A DNA stretch of 64,000 nt from Candidatus Woesearchaeota archaeon (lineage in GTDB: Archaea; Nanobdellota; Nanobdellia; Pacearchaeales; GW2011-AR1). The DNA is taken from assembly GCA_964530955.1 (NCBI GenBank), contig CAZHCL010000001.1, forward strand, positions 1 to 64,000. Direction: 5' to 3'. This document shows positions 1 through 6,234 of this stretch, in pieces (within the stretch, counting starts at the first letter, position 1; each line of letters starts with the position of its first letter). Both the position numbers and the translations under genes were made by a program. The notes under the pieces were generated by a model. It was given only the letters and a program-made list of their open reading frames with translations. It ran no database searches and was not told the origin of the DNA.

Positions 1-921
1 TCCAGCAAATCTGCCATAAGCAACAGATTCTCTTCCTTCTGGAGTCTTCATTTCTTTTTCAACTCCATTTCCTGCTTCAGGCTTACTTCTTTCTTGCCCT
101 TCTTCCCCGCCTTCACCATTGCTTTCATAAGCAGAAAGTCTTTCACTAGGAGATTGGTCTAACAAATGAGCTAAATTTCTTGTGAAATCAGAAGCCATTT
201 TCGGCCATTGCTTTCTTTCAAAGAGAGGAGTTGTTCCTTGTGGAGAGCTTGCTACATTTTTTGGTAAATGAAGGTCTTTGACAACCTTCTGAACTCCTGT
301 TTCAATTGCTCTATCGTTAGTATAATGTCTCTTTAGTAAAGCAGTATCGACATTATCTCCGATAAGATGCATATTAAGCTTGACAAATGCTTCATAAAAT
401 GGAGTATATCCTTTTTTACCTTCTGCTTTTAAAGCTAATCCTTCATTGTCCCAGAATAAAACTTGTCCATTAAAATCTCCTTTAAATTCCTTACATCTAG
501 CATTTACAAAAACATCTTCAAAAGCGTTGGATACATAACGTGCTAAACCTTTCTTACCTTCAGGCAATGCATCTTTGACAGCTTCAAGAATTTTATCATG
601 GTCATAAACATCAAAGGGACACCCTCTTTCAGAGCCGACAGGAAGTTCCCAATGCCCGCATTCATGATAAAGAACATCAGTAATTAATGCCTCCAAACCA
701 TCAGCAATCTTTTTCTTTCTCGCATATGCCCTCTGTCTTCTGTCAGTTACTGGATTAAATCCTTTTCTTAAATTAATCTCAATATTCCATCCTTCTGGAG
801 TTATATGAGCAGCAACATTGTGTTCAGCTTGGTCGTATTCCTGAATCTTTAACGAACCTCCGACTAAGCCTATCTTACTCTTAGCTTGATGCAAATTTTG
901 TTTGATATTTTGTAAGTTCAT
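1..921 (-). CDS. Zincin-like (HExxH) protein, N-terminal 307 aa only (runs off window edge); probable metallopeptidase/VWA-type partner of the upstream AAA+ ATPase
   Basis: Not in the ORF track. Manual translation from ATG at 921 is open to base 1 (MNLQNIKQNLHQ...). Contains VLYHECGHWE (H86-H90, nt 652-666) and NAFEDVFVN (E135), then an acidic/Gly linker. SD-like AAGGAA lies just upstream. A VWA domain is not visible in the window. Confidence 0.7.
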   Translation of the reverse strand, partial: MNLQNIKQNLHQAKSKIGLVGGSLKIQEYDQAEHNVAAHITPEGWNIEINLRKGFNPVTDRRQRAYARKKKIADGLEALITDVLYHECGHWELPVGSERGCPFDVYDHDKILEAVKDALPEGKKGLARYVSNAFEDVFVNARCKEFKGDFNGQVLFWDNEGLALKAEGKKGYTPFYEAFVKLNMHLIGDNVDTALLKRHYTNDRAIETGVQKVVKDLHLPKNVASSPQGTTPLFERKQWPKMASDFTRNLAHLLDQSPSERLSAYESNGEGGEEGQERSKPEAGNGVEKEMKTPEGRESVAYGRFAG

Positions 922-934
922 TTTAATTTATTCC

Positions 935-1735
935 TTATTTTTGCGAGCCTGCGGTGCCTACGGCACCGATGCGTACCCCAAGCGAGGAATACGCGCCAGA
1001 CGCAACCCCACCGCAGACCAGGCCAGCCCAGTCCGAACCCGCACCGAACCCCGCGACTCTTTCAGTATCTTGTTTTGAATTAACTCTCCACAGATAAGTA
1101 TTAGTTCCATTTAGCCACTCAAAAGTATTTTTAATTTCATTGGCATCATCAGCAGTGCCTAAAAGAAACTGATAAGGCAAAATATTATTTGTAGAACTTA
1201 TTAATTCATCAGAGCCTACAAAATTCACATTTTTTGAATATCTTTCTCTTGTGCCGTGATTGTGTATAACTTCATCTTCGCCAGTAGCTTGATATTTTAC
1301 TCTTGTTAGAGTCATCAACCATTTTGCTCTTGCACTGCTCTTCAAAAATTGTTTTGCTTCTTCCACTTCTTGAGCTTTCGATACATCGTTTCTCGCAATA
1401 TAAAGCGCCTTTACTATTCCATAAAGTAGAGGATAATCTGGAGTTCTAAAACCATTTTGAGCAATTGCAGTTTCTGCATAAGCAGCCCAATCATCTTGTG
1501 TTTTCGCACTTCCATTTTCTAATAATGATTTGGCTAAGTCAACAGAATAGATTCCATTCCTATATGCAACTCCAGATATCTGCCATGCATCAGAAATATT
1601 ACTAATTTGAATATTTGAAGGCAAATTAGACTGACTTGGATTTGGAGAAGTTTGATTTTGAGCAGACGCTAGCACTCTTTCAAGTGAGCCTTCAATTGGT
1701 CTTCCCATGTAATTTTTAGGTATTTTTATTGTCAT
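935..1735 (-). CDS. DGR target protein 1 (C-terminal variable region, probable CLec fold)
   Basis: The 3' end carries VR1 and ends ...AYSSLGVR, resembling the terminal GxR strand of CLec-type DGR targets. Confidence 0.9.
   Translation of the reverse strand: MTIKIPKNYMGRPIEGSLERVLASAQNQTSPNPSQSNLPSNIQISNISDAWQISGVAYRNGIYSVDLAKSLLENGSAKTQDDWAAYAETAIAQNGFRTPDYPLLYGIVKALYIARNDVSKAQEVEEAKQFLKSSARAKWLMTLTRVKYQATGEDEVIHNHGTRERYSKNVNFVGSDELISSTNNILPYQFLLGTADDANEIKNTFEWLNGTNTYLWRVNSKQDTERVAGFGAGSDWAGLVCGGVASGAYSSLGVRIGAVGTAGSQK
952..968 (-). promoter_or_regulatory. GC-rich DNA hairpin just 3' of VR1/IMH (7-bp stem, GTA loop), probable DGR homing element
   Basis: Minus strand CGGTGCC-GTA-GGCACCG is a perfect inverted repeat starting 4 nt after VR1. 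Confidence 0.75.
973..1057 (-). repeat. DGR variable repeat VR1
   Basis: 85-nt ungapped match to TR 4280-4364 with 21 mismatches, all at TR adenines (17 A>G, 4 A>T). Confidence 0.96.
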
Positions 1736-1744
1736 ATTATTCTC

Positions 1745-2518
1745 CTAATTTTTCGGGCGCGCAGCGCGTACCCCAAGCGAGGAATACGTGCCAGACGCAT
1801 TCCCATCGCAGCCCAGGTACGCCCTGCCCGAACTCGCATCGAACCTCGCGACTGCTCCATCTACTGGCGTCCAATAGTATAAACTTCCTTTCTTAGTTTT
1901 TGGAGTAGGTAATCCTTGATAATTAGCTTTTTTCAACCAATCATTAAAATTTATTCCAGGAGTTTTATCTGTCTTAATATAATTGACTAAATGTTCATTG
2001 ACTTCTACCAAATTGCCTCCCCCATTAAAATTAAAGGTATGATAAATTATATTGCTTCCTTCAAATCTAGTATCTAACCATTCTGACCTCCAAGGGTCTC
2101 TAACTTTAACTATCTCATCAAAAACACTTTCTAACTTTCCTCTGTTAATTAATTTTCCAGTTCCATCAAATGCTCTTCTGGATTTAAGTAAACTAAGAAA
2201 GTCCACAAATTGCCTTATAGTTAGCATATAATTTCCTTCTTTTGCCAAATCTTCATGAGTTTTAGTCCAATTTTTACCCATGTGACTTTTCTCCATAGAA
2301 ACTAACATATCAGGATATGAATAACTTCCGTGTTGTTTAGCTTCAAGTAAGATATAGTTTTCTGGATTAGTTAAATTTGAAGACGAAGGCACAATTTGAG
2401 AAGTATTTCTACTTTTTTTCTTAGTTTTTACAGAAGGAGGACTATTGCTTGCTAAAATAATTTCAATGGCTCCTTTTATGGGCTTACCACTATATATTGC
2501 TGGAATTTTAATTGCCAT
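1745..2518 (-). CDS. DGR target protein 2 (C-terminal variable region, probable CLec/FGE-like fold)
   Basis: The 3' end carries VR2. NW...MLTIRQF and SEW segments resemble FGE/CLec targets, and the protein ends TYSSLGVR. Confidence 0.9.
   Translation of the reverse strand: MAIKIPAIYSGKPIKGAIEIILASNSPPSVKTKKKSRNTSQIVPSSSNLTNPENYILLEAKQHGSYSYPDMLVSMEKSHMGKNWTKTHEDLAKEGNYMLTIRQFVDFLSLLKSRRAFDGTGKLINRGKLESVFDEIVKVRDPWRSEWLDTRFEGSNIIYHTFNFNGGGNLVEVNEHLVNYIKTDKTPGINFNDWLKKANYQGLPTPKTKKGSLYYWTPVDGAVARFDASSGRAYLGCDGNASGTYSSLGVRAARPKN
1768..1852 (-). repeat. DGR variable repeat VR2
   Basis: 85-nt ungapped match to TR with 14 mismatches: 13 at TR adenines (11 A>G, 2 A>T) and one synonymous T>G at 1820. 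Confidence 0.96.
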
Positions 2519-3734
2519 AGTTGGCCTCTTGCTGTTGTGTAAGATATGTTAAGATATCTTTCATAAAAGACCAACGCCCAGTAAATCTATTTAAGACTTT
2601 ATCATTTAACTTTCCCGAACTAGCCATTTCTAATCCAGCACGAATATCATCATCCTTAGCTACAATCTGTGTTTGAGTAGTCTGAACGATAGCATCTAAT
2701 GCTTTATATTTATCTCCCCCATAATGAGCTTCGACCGCAGCTTCATTTAAAACTCCTGAATAAGCTGCTACAAACTTATAAGCCTGAAGCACAGATTCTA
2801 GAGGAACAACTAATCCATCTTTTCCAGTCTTATCTCTAACAATACTATCTAATGCTTGTGATAATCTAAGAGTTGATTTTGCTGCTCTTGTAGAAAGAGG
2901 AAATATTAATGATTCATCTGAACCTTTAGCATGATTCTTGATGGCAGTAGGCCATTGGTCTTTAAGTTTTCTTTTGCTTGTGACATTGGAATCAGTAGTG
3001 CAATAATCTAATCCGTGAACAAGATAAGCAACAATATTAAGTTTTTCGAGAGGAGTTTCTTGTTTAACAAGATCTTGATGTCTCTTTATAACTTCTTGAG
3101 ACCTGTCTTTGCCATCAGTCTCAAAATTGACCCTTGGATTTGTATTTCCTGCAAGAATTTCAAGAGTATCGTAAGATTGAGGAGCAAAATAATCCGTATC
3201 TAATATTACGTGCATTCTATCTTTTAATGCTCTTCCTAAATCATTTGAAGATTCTGTGAATTTCTGACCTAGATTACCTGTAGCAACTCCGACTGAATAT
3301 CCATTTCCAATTGGATAAGCCTTTCCATTAATCTCTATAAATCCATCAAATAAATTAAATAGCTGTCCTCTTACTGAAGGAACGCAATTAGGCAATTCAT
3401 CAACAACAATTAAATGATAGTCTATTTTATCAGTTAGTTCTCTAGGGTTCATGCCTTTGTCAAGTCTTCCTTCCTTTAATGCTCTAAAGAAATCTGGGTT
3501 TAATTGCTGGAACAATTCTCTTGTGTCCATATCATTTCTTCCTAGAATAAAAGTTGCTTTGTCACCAAAATAACTCATCATATCTCTAGCTAATTGAGTT
3601 TTACCACTTCCAGTATCTCCAACAAGCAAAAGATTTAACCTTCCTCTAAGACACGCCTCAGCCATATCATGCATGTAAATAGGCTGACCACCCAATTGCA
3701 TTATCTCAGTTGAATTTTTGTATGTTTGTTCCAT
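2508..3734 (-). CDS. AAA+ ATPase, MoxR/AAA_5 (dynein-related) type
   Basis: Walker A GDTGSGKT, Walker B LIVVDE, sensor-1 ATGN, Arg finger ALKDR. Confidence 0.85.
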   Translation of the reverse strand: MEQTYKNSTEIMQLGGQPIYMHDMAEACLRGRLNLLLVGDTGSGKTQLARDMMSYFGDKATFILGRNDMDTRELFQQLNPDFFRALKEGRLDKGMNPRELTDKIDYHLIVVDELPNCVPSVRGQLFNLFDGFIEINGKAYPIGNGYSVGVATGNLGQKFTESSNDLGRALKDRMHVILDTDYFAPQSYDTLEILAGNTNPRVNFETDGKDRSQEVIKRHQDLVKQETPLEKLNIVAYLVHGLDYCTTDSNVTSKRKLKDQWPTAIKNHAKGSDESLIFPLSTRAAKSTLRLSQALDSIVRDKTGKDGLVVPLESVLQAYKFVAAYSGVLNEAAVEAHYGGDKYKALDAIVQTTQTQIVAKDDDIRAGLEMASSGKLNDKVLNRFTGRWSFMKDILTYLTQQQEANYGN

Positions 3735-3886
3735 TATTCAGCCTCCTTGATTATATCAATTTTAATTTCAACTATAGTTTTAGGTTTTAAATCTTCCTGC
3801 AAATATTTAGGGATAAGTATGACTGATTGTTTACCGTGCTTGGCGATTCTCTTTGTTATTACATAACTTTTTTGTTTGCTTTCCAT
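3734..3886 (-). CDS. 50-aa AbrB/SpoVT-like (DUF2080-like) putative DNA-binding protein
   Basis: Not in the ORF track. MESKQKSYVITKRIAKHGKQSVILIPKYLQEDLKPKTIVEIKIDIIKEAE has the G.Q..I.IPK swapped-hairpin pattern. Its TAA overlaps the ATPase ATG (TAATG). Confidence 0.7.
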   Translation of the reverse strand: MESKQKSYVITKRIAKHGKQSVILIPKYLQEDLKPKTIVEIKIDIIKEAE

Positions 3887-4279: not shown

Positions 4280-4364
4280 GTCGCGAGGTTCAATGCGAAT
4301 TCGGACAGGGCTAACCTGAACTGCAATAGGAATGCGTCTAACACGAATTCCTCGCTTGGAATAC
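4280..4364 (+). ncRNA. DGR template repeat (TR), core of the template RNA
   Basis: In the VR frame it has 8 AAY codons and ends TCCTCGCTTGGAATAC, where both VRs have TCCTCGCTTGGGGTAC. Confidence 0.93.
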
Positions 4365-4387: not shown

Positions 4388-5565
4388 ATGAAAACACACA
4401 AAAATTTGTATAAGAAGTTATGCACAATGAAGAATGTGCATGACTCTTATCTCAAGGCAAGAAGAGGAAAATCAAAGAAACAAGCAATTATTGAATTTGA
4501 CCAAAAGAAGGAAGAGAATCTTGAACAATTGCAAAAAGAGCTAATAGAAATGAATTATGAGCCTAAACCTCTCAAAAGATTTATTGTTAGAGACCCAAAA
4601 ACAAGAACAATTCACGCTTCCAAATTCAAGGATAGAGTTGTCCATCATATGCTGGTAAATGTTTTGGAGCCTATTTTTGAAAAAATATTCATTTTTGATT
4701 CCTACGCCAGCAGAAAAGACAAAGGAGCACATTTAGCAATAGAGAGATTTGACAGATTTAAGAGAAAAGTATCACAGAACGGAAGACTCGTTCGGGGGGG
4801 GGGCGTAGCAAAAATGAAGTTCAGGGTTATGTCCTAAAAGCAGATATCGCTCATTATTTTGATAGCGTTGACCATGAAATATTGTTAAATATAATAAAGA
4901 AGAAGGTTAAAGATGAAAAAATTATATGGCTTACAAGAAAGATTTTAAACAATTTCAATACTGAAGTTAAAGGCAAGGGCATGCCTCTAGGAAATTACAC
5001 ATCTCAATTCTTTGCAAATGTTTATCTTACTGAATTGGATTATTTTGTTAAACATACGTTAAAAGCTAAATATTATATTAGATATGTAGATGACTTTGTA
5101 ATATTGCATAGAAGCAAGAAAAGATTAGAATACTTCAAAAAGAGTATTATAGAATTTCTGAGAGAAATAAAATTAGAATTGCATCCTGACAAGTCAGATA
5201 TAATTCCATTGCAAAAAGGAGTTAACTTTTTAGGTTATAGAATTTTTTATAAATATAGATTATTGAGGAAAAGAAACAGAAATTACTTTCTAAAGAAATT
5301 TGAAAAATATCTAAAACTCTATAATGAAGAAATTATTAGTGATGAACAATTAATATTCAGATTACAAGGTTGGTTTGGCTACGCTCAATGGGCTGATACT
5401 TATCTTTTCAGAAAAAAGATGATAGAAAAAGCTGCAAATTCATTCAAAGCAAAAGGTTCTAAACTATTGGATGAATTATCTAAACTTAAGAAAATAACAA
5501 AACCGCAAGGTATAAAAGAAATAAAATGCATTCAAAGTGATAAAATAAGGGGAAAATGGACATAA
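4388..5565 (+). CDS. DGR reverse transcriptase, interrupted by a frameshift (ORF-track pieces 4388-4837 and 4882-5565 are one gene)
   Basis: The N-part has RT motifs RDPKTRTI..FKDRVVHH and SYASRKDKGAH. The -1 frame continues GYVLKADIAHYFDSVDH, GMPLGNYTSQFFAN, YIRYVDDF and FLGY. G11 or G8 instead of G10 restores a ~392-aa ORF. Confidence 0.92.
4794..4803 (+). repeat. G10 homopolymer at the RT frameshift
   Basis: TTC-GGGGGGGGGG-CGT, inside the interval (~4760-4835) where both frames are open. Confidence 0.95.
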
Positions 5566-5843
5566 TTGTCATATCCGGCATTCTTGGAGGAATAGGTGGT
5601 TTGACTAGGGGAGTTGTTGGTTTGTTAAAGGCTCTTTCTCTTAGAAGAAGGATTATATGGACTTATTATGCTATTACTGTTCTTGTTGCAATGATTATAG
5701 GCGCTTTTGTAGGGATAATATTCAGCTTTGACAAACGTCTTTCTTTACTGGCAGGATATGCTGGTACCGATATATTAGAGGGAATTTACAAGTCTTTTGC
5801 AGTTCAGAAGGTCTATGTTTCATCTGCAAAAGCAAGCAAATAA
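5556..5843 (+). CDS. Small membrane protein (about 3 TM), overlapping the RT stop
   Basis: Hydrophobic Gly-rich helices; GYAGTDILE motif. Confidence 0.65.
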   Translation: MDIIVISGILGGIGGLTRGVVGLLKALSLRRRIIWTYYAITVLVAMIIGAFVGIIFSFDKRLSLLAGYAGTDILEGIYKSFAVQKVYVSSAKASK

Positions 5844-5844
5844 A

Positions 5845-6234
5845 ATGAATACCATTGATGAAAGACTTTTAACATTTATCAGTGAAGCAAGAAGGAGAGG
5901 TTACAGTGATTCTAAAATAAAACAGGCTCTTATTGAGAAGAGCTGGCCTGCTGATGAAGTTGAACAAGCATTTCATCTTGCTAAGCTGTCTGAGAGCGAG
6001 CAGAATTCTAAGAAAGAAGGAGGGAAATTCAAAATAGAAGTATATCTTGAAACTGAAGTTTTCAAAAATGTGGAAAAAAGAGCTAGGAAGAATATGCTCT
6101 CTGTTCCTGAACAGATTGAAGATATAGTAAGAAGAAGCTGCGTGCGTTCAAAATTGATTAAACCATTCCAAAGTGAAAAAATAGATGACTTGCTCATTAG
6201 TGTATTTTCAAGAAGAAAGTCAGGAAGAAAATAA
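5845..6234 (+). CDS. Hypothetical protein (start probably 5845, MNTIDE...)
   Basis: ATG follows the previous stop; helical N-terminus and a possible ribbon-helix-helix-like C-terminal segment. Confidence 0.6.
   Translation: MNTIDERLLTFISEARRRGYSDSKIKQALIEKSWPADEVEQAFHLAKLSESEQNSKKEGGKFKIEVYLETEVFKNVEKRARKNMLSVPEQIEDIVRRSCVRSKLIKPFQSEKIDDLLISVFSRRKSGRK

Follow-up and report, generated by a model that had tools for sequence, protein, structure and literature searches.

A Conserved Archaeal Cassette of a MoxR-like ATPase, a Zincin-like vWA Protein and DGR-Diversified Proteins

Introduction

Proteins varied by diversity-generating retroelements (DGRs) have a precedent in bacteria as sensors of MoxR-vWA systems (PMC7159879, PMC10907252). 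These DGR-associated vWA-MoxR (VMAP) ternary conflict systems occur in multicellular bacteria, cyanobacteria and gammaproteobacteria among them (Kaur et al. 2020, PMC7159879; Dore et al. 2024, PMC10907252), and metallopeptidase effectors are called rare among them (Kaur et al. 2020, PMC7159879). The cassette described here, which adds an archaeal form to these DGR-coupled systems of bacteria, lies at the start of a 64,000-nucleotide stretch of DNA (the window) from a Candidatus Woesearchaeota archaeon (assembly GCA_964530955.1, contig CAZHCL010000001.1, positions 1 to 64,000). Like the VMAP systems, it combines a MoxR-like AAA+ ATPase with a vWA/MIDAS partner, a peptidase (predicted in the archaeal case) and a binding domain diversified by a DGR, all encoded together; in both, the targets have a predicted cytoplasmic location, and the variable part is proposed as the sensor. 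The predicted archaeal peptidase is a zincin-like domain at the N-terminus of the vWA protein, and the archaeal DGR targets are one to five separate small proteins that share a tag and are not fused to the vWA protein; the latter carries no VR, and the targets are separate ORFs of 257-266 aa. The host, moreover, is a DPANN archaeon with a genome of about 0.8 Mb and not a multicellular bacterium. No third VMAP protein was matched: Pfam, in a set that includes the related bpMoxR and from which the VMAP models are perhaps absent, matches no cassette protein other than the ATPase.

The known MoxR-vWA pairs, among which NorQ/NorD, CbbQ/CbbO, RavA/ViaA and midasin are listed, are mostly assembly or maturation chaperones and not degradation machines (PMC7159879). 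The model of the archaeal vWA domain aligns with the vWA domain of NorD and with the midasin (Rea1/MDN1) MIDAS that pairs with the Rsa4/Ytm1 UBL, and its own MIDAS is intact. Unlike the archaeal cassette, however, these systems have one fixed client, no protease domain and no hypervariable partner. Paul et al. 2017, as cited in PMC10907252, functionally couple a DGR-varied domain to an AAA_5/midasin-like ATPase in ultra-small organisms, a coupling that is also proposed here, and 'midasin' matches are reported in PMC5758913. As far as that citation describes the system, it differs from the cassette described here, in which the variable proteins are encoded apart from the ATPase and would be joined to it through the tag.

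Organization of the Cassette

The cassette occupies five minus-strand genes at 1-3886, with ends that overlap or nearly abut, beside a DGR. These are a small first gene of 50 aa (3886..3734), a divergent MoxR-like AAA+ ATPase of 408 aa (3734..2508), DGR target 2 of 257 aa (2518..1745), DGR target 1 of 266 aa (1735..935) and the 307-aa zincin-like N-terminal domain of an approximately 590-aa zincin-vWA protein (921..1), which is open at the contig end. An earlier note on this DNA had described five co-oriented genes with tight junctions, and reading the junctions directly bears this out. The small gene and the ATPase gene share a TAATG overlap at 3734 with GGAGG upstream, the ATPase and target 2 genes overlap by 11 nt at 2508-2518, a 9-nt gap with GGAG separates target 2 from target 1, and a 13-nt gap separates target 1 from the HExxH gene. 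Judged from its sequence, the cassette is an operon with translational coupling. A Kyte-Doolittle 19-residue mean that never exceeds 1.13 leaves all five proteins devoid of a hydrophobic stretch, and no signal peptide or TM segment was found in any of them, in line with what the note had said of the targets.

The window opens at a contig end, which truncates the HExxH gene. The gene resumes on another contig of the same genome, C18, which overlaps the window exactly over 19 nt and carries the reading frame on without a break. C18 carries the rest of the gene on the minus strand (L051:8493-9362), including a complete vWA/MIDAS domain, and then a third DGR target. The C-terminal vWA/MIDAS domain that had been predicted to lie beyond base 1 is thus present on the genome's own C18 as well as in orthologues. 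The conserved cassette has six genes in all. The five at 1-3886 make up its front part, and the final one and a half are on C18. In order, the six encode a small, possibly AbrB/MazE-like protein, the MoxR-like AAA+ ATPase, target 2, target 1, the zincin-vWA protein and target 3.

The Diversity-Generating Retroelement

The template repeat (TR) of the DGR lies on the plus strand at 4280..4364 and forms inverted-repeat pairs with both VRs of the window. The description of the targets as DGR-hypermutated stands: mismatches fall on TR adenines in 13 of 14 cases in VR2 (1768-1852, target 2), 21 of 21 in VR1 (973-1057, target 1) and 14 of 14 in VR3 (target 3, C18), or 48 of 49 for the three targets together. 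The TR contains 8 AAY codons and has 22 of its 24 adenines at codon positions 1-2, and each VR carries 10-13 non-synonymous versus 1-2 synonymous codon changes. The VRs lie at the 3' end of the target ORFs, where the neighbouring DGR rewrites the last 28 or so codons of all three targets.

The reverse transcriptase (RT; 4388..5565, plus strand) is matched by Pfam RVT_1 on both halves, with 50.5 bits on the C-terminal part, and has further RT matches in NCBIfam and PADLOC. Its reading frame is disrupted within a G10 run at 4794-4803, which is the sole G/C run of at least 8 in the window. Since the frame is broken in the assembly, diversification may be off at present. A Pfam search of the two small ORFs 3' of the RT gave no Avd-like match. 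Across the host's phylum, DGR RTs occur in 112 of 401 genomes, and most of them do not adjoin this cassette.

The Variable Target Proteins

All targets, together with the target-like proteins of related cassettes, share a common build in which an N-terminal tag of about 20 residues is followed by a low-complexity flexible linker and a variable globular domain. The linker of target 2 is rich in Pro and Ser and leads to a C-terminal domain that ends in VR2, while target 1 has the same N-terminal tag, a different middle region and VR1. The tag is identical among paralogues of one locus and different between distant loci, and a pattern search of the host genome finds it only on the three targets. 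It is not hydrophobic and carries conserved acidic residues. That these three tagged, self-mutating proteins share one conserved operon with an ATP-driven motor and a protease-like adaptor protein suggests interchangeable intracellular recognition parts of one machine and not surface adhesins.

Pfam and PDB profile searches for the putative C-type-lectin fold of the targets, which the earlier note had named as CLec domains, gave no match. Aligned by hhalign with FGE-sulfatase domains of the same phylum, a target matches over 24-26 columns only, at a W..A...C..G..LPT..EW motif (E 0.015-0.022, probability 2-3%), and the VR end LGVR resembles LGFRC.

The AAA+ ATPase

The ATPase had been named AAA_5/MoxR. 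The window protein passes Pfam AAA_5 (E 2.3e-10, 41.1 bits, cut-off 22) and matches it alone among the family models. Of 22 orthologues, 14 match AAA_5, 2 the MoxR model AAA_3 (best 2.8e-9) and 3 the MoxR model bpMoxR (best 1.1e-5). The family profile matches the MoxR structure 2r44 at 4e-5, with ClpC/ClpB D2 scoring better, and a single-sequence PDB search returns midasin AAA modules as the best match. The elements of the AAA+ core (Walker A, Walker B, sensor 1, arginine finger, sensor 2) are present. Among 22-28 orthologues, Walker A residues G44/K45, Walker B E113, sensor-1 N154 and R173 are invariant, and R283 is nearly so.

The Zincin-vWA Protein

The zincin-vWA protein consists of an N-terminal zincin-like HExxH domain, a disordered acidic linker and a C-terminal vWA domain with a complete MIDAS site. 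The HExxH/NxxED motif named in the earlier note is both present in the window protein (H86, E87 and H90; N132, E135 and D136) and conserved: across 71-78 sequences H90 and D136 are invariant and H86, E87 and N132 are at least 90% conserved. An AF2 model of the window's zincin fragment (pLDDT 90.8) places HExxH where one helix (75-89) ends and D136 on another (121-147), and either D136 or E135 is the probable third metal ligand. The model looks zincin-like, in line with the note's assignment, with modest structural scores. Nearly all of the best 50 VIA-align matches are zinc metallopeptidases, with Z scores of 7.1 for ZMPSTE24, 6.8 for Ste24, 6.8 for DPP III, 6.0 for BepA and 5.2 for thermolysin, all below the tool's guide of Z 8, and Foldseek with the same model gave no match at E ≤ 1e-3. 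In one Atlas look-alike cluster of the domain, 13% of the members carry Peptidase_M48. The zincin-like fold of the model, the conserved HExxH and the invariant D136 together suggest a putative active site.

In the vWA half, the MIDAS (DxSxS...T...D) has D406, S408, T492 and D515 invariant and S410 at least 90% conserved in 71 sequences of 22-63% identity; the C18 fragment of the host genome has these residues too. Pfam VWA matches 10 of the 71 family members. An AF2 model of an orthologue, P0001, that is 58-67% identical to the genome's own protein (pLDDT 90.3) has a vWA domain that VIA-align superposes on 4fx5 with Z 16.6 (168 residues aligned, rmsd 2.5), and Foldseek also matches it to vWA domains. 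Against the MoxR-partner types, the model reaches Z 14.8 with NorD (9qh8) over residues 299-581 and Z 13 with the MDN1/Rea1 MIDAS, N-terminal extension included.

Proteins that join DUF2201_N (PF13203, a putative metallopeptidase) to DUF2201 (PF09967, VWA-like) usually adjoin MoxR-like ATPases, and they share with the archaeal protein an HExxH domain followed by a vWA-like domain and an ATPase neighbour. Unlike them, the archaeal protein has about 590 aa and a disordered acidic linker. Identity with this pair was rejected, as its HMMs match neither the window fragment at E ≤ 10 nor eight full-length orthologues at E ≤ 1. A six-frame search of the whole genome for PF13203 and PF09967 likewise gave no match at E ≤ 10, and control genomes responded.

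Conservation across the Phylum

The earlier note had proposed looking in relatives for the same gene order, with and without a DGR. Across the host's phylum one arrangement recurs (small protein, AAA+ ATPase, tagged variable protein or proteins, zincin-vWA protein, variable protein); it is kept in about 30 loci from many families, including distant relatives, at 25-60% protein identity, and both kinds of cassette exist. The ATPase has a match at E ≤ 1e-5 in 55 of 401 genomes, 42 of which also pass E ≤ 1e-17. With these 42 counted as carriers of the ATPase, the zincin-vWA protein is found in 36 genomes, and 33 of these 36 also have the ATPase; in 20 of the 33 both genes lie on a single contig, a median of 2 kb apart. 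Cassettes without a detectable RT keep arrays of 5-8 tagged paralogues. Since some cassettes lack a DGR, the element is an addition to the system and not its core. On one metagenome contig, a transposase lies near the cassette.

A Proposed Model of Tethered Adaptors and Its Alternatives

SspB, a tethered adaptor of the AAA+ protease ClpXP, joins a short docking peptide through a long flexible linker to its substrate-binding domain. The targets repeat this build of docking peptide, flexible linker and binding domain, a likeness in how they may work, since they have no sequence or fold relation to SspB. Unlike SspB, they have the docking peptide at the N-terminus, a binding domain diversified by a DGR, and a MoxR-like ATPase with a zincin-vWA protein as partner. 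In the proposed mechanism, the targets would act as tethered AAA+ protease adaptors whose binding surface is reprogrammed by the DGR. The tag would tether each variable protein to the complex of ATPase and zincin-vWA protein, most likely through contact of its conserved acidic residues with the MIDAS metal, in the manner of midasin-Rsa4 or of integrin ligands. A cytoplasmic ligand captured by the variable domain would then be remodelled by the ATPase, and the zincin domain would cleave the ligand or the adaptor. In lineages without a DGR, the arrays of tagged paralogues would serve the same purpose. In its favour count the coupled gene junctions, the adenine-specific changes in three targets, the gene order and linkage kept across the phylum, the conserved ATPase, MIDAS and HExxH residues, the shared tags, the lack of signal peptides and TM segments, and the bacterial precedent. 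Against it weigh the negative fold searches on the targets, the modest zincin matches, the chaperone role of most known MoxR-vWA pairs, the broken RT frame and the DGR RTs of the phylum, most of which lie away from such cassettes. Taken as a whole, from the cassette through tag-MIDAS docking to capture, remodelling and cleavage, this explanation has an even chance of being correct.

The likely ligands would be viral or host proteins, and the cassette would then correspond, in DPANN archaea, to the DGR-coupled MoxR-vWA conflict systems of bacteria. The earlier note had likewise seen the variable proteins as specificity subunits that deliver foreign proteins to an ATPase-peptidase machine. Its overall interpretation is partly supported; delivery of foreign proteins to a peptidase competes with at least one other reading compatible with the data. 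The full proposal, a programmable intracellular recognition-and-destruction system in DPANN in which adaptors rewritten by a DGR or expanded in arrays, and tethered by their tags to the MIDAS, pass viral or host proteins to the MoxR-like ATPase and the metalloprotease, is tentative and on the doubtful side. If true, it would provide an antibody-like adaptive layer within cells of genomes below 1 Mb, and DPANN DGR targets could no longer be viewed as surface adhesins.

The foremost alternative makes the variable proteins clients. The ATPase and the zincin-vWA protein would be a maturation or assembly chaperone for them, the tag would be a recognition or leader peptide removed by the zincin, and the mature lectin-like proteins would act elsewhere, for example in cell-cell attachment; in a related version, misfolded hypermutants recognized by the tag would be degraded as quality control. 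Leader peptides share the tag-and-linker build of the targets, the vWA model resembles NorD and the midasin MIDAS domain, and the characterised pairs NorQ/NorD, CbbQ/CbbO, RavA/ViaA and midasin are remodelling or assembly factors (PMC7159879). The literature, too, sees DPANN DGR targets as serving host attachment (PMC6349945). Yet across the cassettes compared there is no conserved export signal, TM segment or secretion gene, and the tag is not hydrophobic. The existence of cassettes without a DGR also weighs against it, since hypermutation quality control cannot then be the ancestral role. On balance, this client role is judged unlikely.

Far less probable is a module of a mobile element or virus, in which the variable proteins would be receptor-binding particle parts and the MoxR-vWA pair would assemble the particle, like the tail system of the archaeal virus ATV. 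Such a module would fit the patchy distribution of the family (the two ATPase counts given above), the transposase near one cassette and the archaeal phage-tail MoxR-vWA system listed in PMC7159879. The surroundings argue otherwise: neither the window flanks nor C18 contain capsid, portal, terminase or integrase genes, and the genes around the cassette encode TatD, an S8 subtilase, GNAT, an aminotransferase and a decarboxylase. The targets, furthermore, are small (about 260 aa) and without fibre-like regions. A chance neighbourhood, in which the DGR targets would merely have landed in an ATPase-vWA operon to which they have no functional relation, can hardly be right and is close to refuted by the conservation data, given that the interleaved order, the overlapping stop and start codons and the tags all persist at 25-30% identity and in cassettes without a DGR.

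The Small First Gene

The earlier note had placed an AbrB-like regulator first in the operon. The position holds, and most cassettes encode the 50-aa product, at 55-70% identity, ahead of the ATPase; the name is less secure, since Pfam and NCBIfam gave no match and the lead to PF04014 MazE_antitoxin from the Atlas is weak (score 0.85). The protein is possibly an AbrB/MazE/SpoVT-like DNA-binding protein, and paralogues of it are encoded on two further contigs of the genome, C2 and C7.

An operon divided between two contigs

The genome comprises 761 kb in 26 contigs at 34% GC, and search labels assign it to the DPANN archaea (Nanobdellota/Nanoarchaeota). The window takes in the first 64 kb of contig C1 and opens on a compact minus-strand cassette that encodes, in order of transcription, a small protein of 50 aa (3886..3734), an ATPase of 408 aa (3734..2508), two proteins called here target 2 (257 aa, 2518..1745) and target 1 (266 aa, 1735..935), and an HExxH protein that runs off the contig after 307 aa (921..1). 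The junctions, read directly, are a TAATG stop/start overlap following GGAGG, an 11-nt overlap, a 9-nt gap with GGAG and a 13-nt gap. These five ORFs lie where the earlier note had placed them, and its claim that the two targets lack an obvious transmembrane segment agrees with the absence of any hydrophobic segment from all five window cassette proteins.

The same note had called for an extension past base 1 and a search there for a vWA domain with its MIDAS. The end of C18, another contig of the same genome, supplies this half. When the HExxH protein is compared with a full-length orthologue, residues 1-304 of the latter match the window and residues 300-585 match the end of C18, where the family carries a complete MIDAS signature. 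There C18 overlaps the start of C1 by 19 identical nt, the reading frame continuing across the join, and the gene, referred to below as zincin-vWA, therefore codes for ~590 residues. Directly after it on C18 (locus L051) lies target 3 (L051:7702-8496, minus strand), which also has a variable repeat (VR). The structural predictions have thus held. The interpretation is supported in part, with its functional claim standing as a proposal.

A MoxR-like ATPase and its two-domain partner

The window ATPase passes Pfam AAA_5 above the gathering score, and its orthologues match AAA_5 (14/22), bpMoxR (3/22) or AAA_3 (2/22). The Walker A Gly and Lys, the Walker B Glu, the sensor-1 Asn and a candidate arginine finger are invariant in 22-28 orthologues, and the sensor-2 arginine is nearly so. 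Against the PDB, the single sequence finds its best match in midasin AAA modules, and a profile of the family picks out ClpC/ClpB D2 and the MoxR structure 2r44. Judged by these sequence matches, the cassette ATPase is best described as a divergent MoxR-like AAA+ protein, a term used here short of strict MoxR membership. Some orthologues reach 487-495 aa (L038:9134-10597, L036:9477-10964 and L039:9445-10929) because ~85 residues are inserted after the Walker A region and before residue ~95 in window numbering.

The zincin-vWA protein belongs to a large family whose N-terminal domain has no Pfam model; one search yields 309 clusters at 90% identity, and an exhaustive one 571 clusters at 50% identity. 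Pfam gives no significant match for the HExxH fragment or for any of eight full-length orthologues, NCBIfam and PADLOC return nothing for the fragment, and sequence and profile searches of the PDB return nothing for the family. Conservation among 71 members at 22-63% identity defines both halves. H86, E87, H90, C101, P102, N132 and D136 are invariant or near-invariant in the first, and D406, S408, S410, T492 and D515, which make up the complete MIDAS signature, are so in the second. Pfam VWA matches 10 of the 71, a relationship visible only by scanning diverse members.

Structural models extend this picture. The AF2 model of the full-length orthologue P0001 has a pLDDT of 90.3 and a pTM of 0.84, and that of the window's own 307-residue fragment a pLDDT of 90.8. 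The C-terminal domain of the P0001 model aligns with solved vWA domains at Z 16.6 and with those of the MoxR-partner type at Z 14.8 (NorD, residues 299-581) and Z ~13 (the MIDAS of MDN1/Rea1). For the N-terminal domain, a structure search independent of Foldseek places zinc metallopeptidases in nearly all of its best 50 rows, at Z scores that are modest: ZMPSTE24 7.1, Ste24 6.8, DPP III 6.8, BepA 6.0 and thermolysin 5.2, with selecase, BlaR1 and Wss1 also among the matches. Foldseek with the N-domain model gives no match at E<=1e-3. A zincin fold is supported by the consistency of these model-based matches and by the conserved HExxH, short of proof because the Z scores are modest and Foldseek is empty. 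Atlas models with the same two-domain shape come from Thorarchaeota, Thermodesulfobacteriota and Myxococcota, and in one look-alike cluster 13% of members carry Peptidase_M48. Another look-alike architecture, DUF2201_N plus DUF2201, was dropped as an identity for the HExxH protein, as its HMMs match neither the fragment, the eight orthologues nor the genome.

Tagged targets and the DGR that varies them

The targets match nothing in Pfam, NCBIfam, PADLOC or PDB sequence and profile searches, and their family of at least 258 clusters at 90% identity is entirely unnamed. A feature search of the ESM Atlas, which has no model of target 2 itself, retrieves for that protein nothing beyond unnamed Nanobdellota clusters. 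All targets nevertheless share a common build: an N-terminal tag of ~20 residues, a linker rich in Pro, Ser, Gln and Lys, and a globular domain whose final residues are the VR, with the consensus ...VARFxAxSGxAxLxC...SSLGVRxAR. The tag is near-identical among paralogues of one locus; the tags of distant loci differ, keeping an aromatic-small-Gly/Asp core followed by acidic residues. A pattern search finds it in this genome on the three targets only. When target profiles are aligned by hhalign with FGE-sulfatase domains of the same phylum, the only match is a low-probability one of 24-26 columns, covering the motif W..A...C..G..LPT..EW; because this is a short motif alone, a C-type-lectin fold is not asserted. 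A 208-aa protein (L043:13386-14012) considered as a further target proved to be an unrelated P-loop kinase-like protein (AAA_28).

Among DPANN archaea and CPR bacteria, DGRs occur unusually often, and the one in the window is real. Its template repeat (TR, 4280-4364) pairs with two inverted copies, one within the 3' end of each of the genes for targets 2 and 1. Differences from the TR fall at TR adenines in 13/14 cases in one window VR and 21/21 in the other, and all 14 differences in the VR of target 3 do the same (14/14). In the target reading frame the TR contains 8 AAY codons, with 22/24 adenines at codon positions 1-2, and each VR carries 10-13 non-synonymous codon changes versus only 1-2 synonymous ones.

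The RT (4388-5565) is recognisable on both halves of a frame broken within a G10 run (4794-4803); nowhere else in the 64-kb window does a G/C run reach 8. Related cassettes of two other genomes (L035:592 and L056:7320) likewise have an RT divided between two ORFs by a G9 or G10 run, and a third RT that is split (L059) lacks one. Either a slipped-strand on/off switch or a homopolymer error of the assembly may explain the G10 run.

The cassette across the phylum

In a sample of 401 genomes across the phylum, the ATPase occurs in 42/401 (E<=1e-17), the zincin-vWA gene in 36/401 (E<=1e-90) and both in 33/401, counts that include related, non-independent genomes, with matches spread over many families. 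One unpublished genome, G360, has a weak ATPase match only; it is left out and supports no claim. One homologue is labelled Paceibacterota; its contigs hold the same cassette with archaeal-type neighbours, and no claim of CPR-bacterial occurrence is made.

The two genes share a contig in 20 genomes at a median gap of 2 kb (range 91 nt to 9 kb), and in most of the remaining genomes with both, each lies at a contig end, as in the window genome. The earlier note had proposed looking for its gene order in other DPANN genomes, with and without a DGR. ORF maps of ~30 loci, with and without an RT, keep the same order: small protein, ATPase, target-like proteins, zincin-vWA and 0-2 further targets. 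The target-like proteins between ATPase and zincin-vWA range from none in one locus (genome G150) to eight in the array of genome G136. Identity to the window declines jointly for ATPase and zincin-vWA, from ~57/55% to ~28/26%, as expected for a co-inherited unit.

An RT is present in ~40% of the ~30 mapped loci, and at least 14 genomes have one no more than 10 kb from cassette genes. A reading of the lists places an RT in about two thirds of cassette-bearing genomes; DGR-type RTs occur in 112/401 genomes, most of which have no cassette. In four nearly complete cassette genomes (G115, G150, G136 and G159) the RT query used finds no RT. Two of these, G136 and G159, carry five to eight tandem paralogues between the ATPase and zincin-vWA genes (L052, G136:C2, 2466-11265; L047, G159:C1, 3033-9265). 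The paralogues have one common tag (FAGFS-acidic-acidic-A) and unlike C-terminal domains with no LGVR ending. The DGR is an add-on to the cassette. Since tagged arrays exist where no RT is detected, tagged, diversified partners appear to be the constant feature, their diversity coming from either hypermutation or paralogue expansion. The cassettes devoid of a DGR point to tagged variable partners as the ancestral design and to hypermutation as one diversifying route.

Proposed mechanism and relation to known systems

The sequences establish the operon and its conservation, the domains encoded, catalytic and MIDAS residues that are intact, the tags and the action of the DGR on the targets. We propose that the variable proteins dock through their tag on the ATPase/zincin-vWA machine. 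The favoured docking site is the MIDAS, since ligands contribute an acidic residue to such domains and acidic residues persist in the tags. The variable domain would then bind a cytoplasmic ligand, whose capture would lead to ATPase-driven remodelling and zincin cleavage. A docking peptide, a flexible linker and a binding domain are the build of the tethered adaptors of AAA+ proteases, and the targets have this same build. The main rival reading is that the variable proteins are clients rather than adaptors, which the machine matures, trims or quality-controls; this agrees with the roles of characterised MoxR-vWA pairs (PMC7159879). Complex prediction for a full-length zincin-vWA orthologue and its own target scored 0.00 in both runs, which is evidence neither way. 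From the fixed operon, concrete and testable predictions follow: the tag should dock on the MIDAS, remodelling should need ATP and cleavage should need zinc.

DGR-diversified lectin-like domains are known from MoxR-vWA 'ternary' systems of cyanobacteria, gammaproteobacteria and other multicellular bacteria, in which, in contrast to the cassette, the vWA protein usually includes the varied domain as a fusion, and a trypsin or caspase peptidase is carried on a separate VMAP protein, metallopeptidases being rare (PMC7159879; PMC10907252). A published survey reports no link of the DPANN/CPR RT clade to conflict-system domains (PMC10907252), and the usual guess for DPANN/CPR DGR targets is host-cell attachment (PMC6349945). 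'Midasin' matches have been noted in some CPR targets, with a function described as little known (PMC5758913). Full-text searches on DGR or DPANN combined with MoxR or von Willebrand find no paper that describes the archaeal cassette; Paul et al. 2017 lies outside this coverage, which is the main caveat on novelty. The cassette places one large DPANN target family (at least 258 clusters) in a fixed operon with an AAA+ ATPase and a zincin-vWA/MIDAS protein, and its tag-linker-domain build could offer a natural scaffold on which to program protein targeting.

Small proteins, neighbours and assembly breaks

The 50-aa protein finds nothing in Pfam, NCBIfam or PADLOC, and the Atlas offers only a weak lead to the MazE/SpoVT-AbrB family. 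It precedes the ATPase in most cassettes at 55-70% identity. Further copies in its own genome, 51-61% identical, lie at C2:10984-11121 and C7:14606-14734, and the family is therefore used in other contexts too. After the RT, ORFs at 5556-6234 encode a 95-aa membrane protein and a 145-aa charged protein, neither resembling Avd. Both are kept (73% and 49% identity) beside the ATPase gene of the same-family genome G395 (L036:8629-9123), where there is no RT.

The assembly break inside the zincin-vWA gene falls at a disordered acidic linker (window base 1; L051:9345-9363), and ATPase and zincin-vWA genes lie at contig ends in many other genomes too. This recurrence suggests that population heterogeneity or repeats within the cassette fragment assemblies. 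Downstream of target 3 by 62 nt, a Peptidase_S8 subtilase of 906 aa begins on the same strand of C18 (L051:4920-7640, minus strand). It is absent from the other cassettes examined and is therefore probably an unrelated neighbour; beyond it lie genes for a GNAT acetyltransferase and a LAGLIDADG protein.
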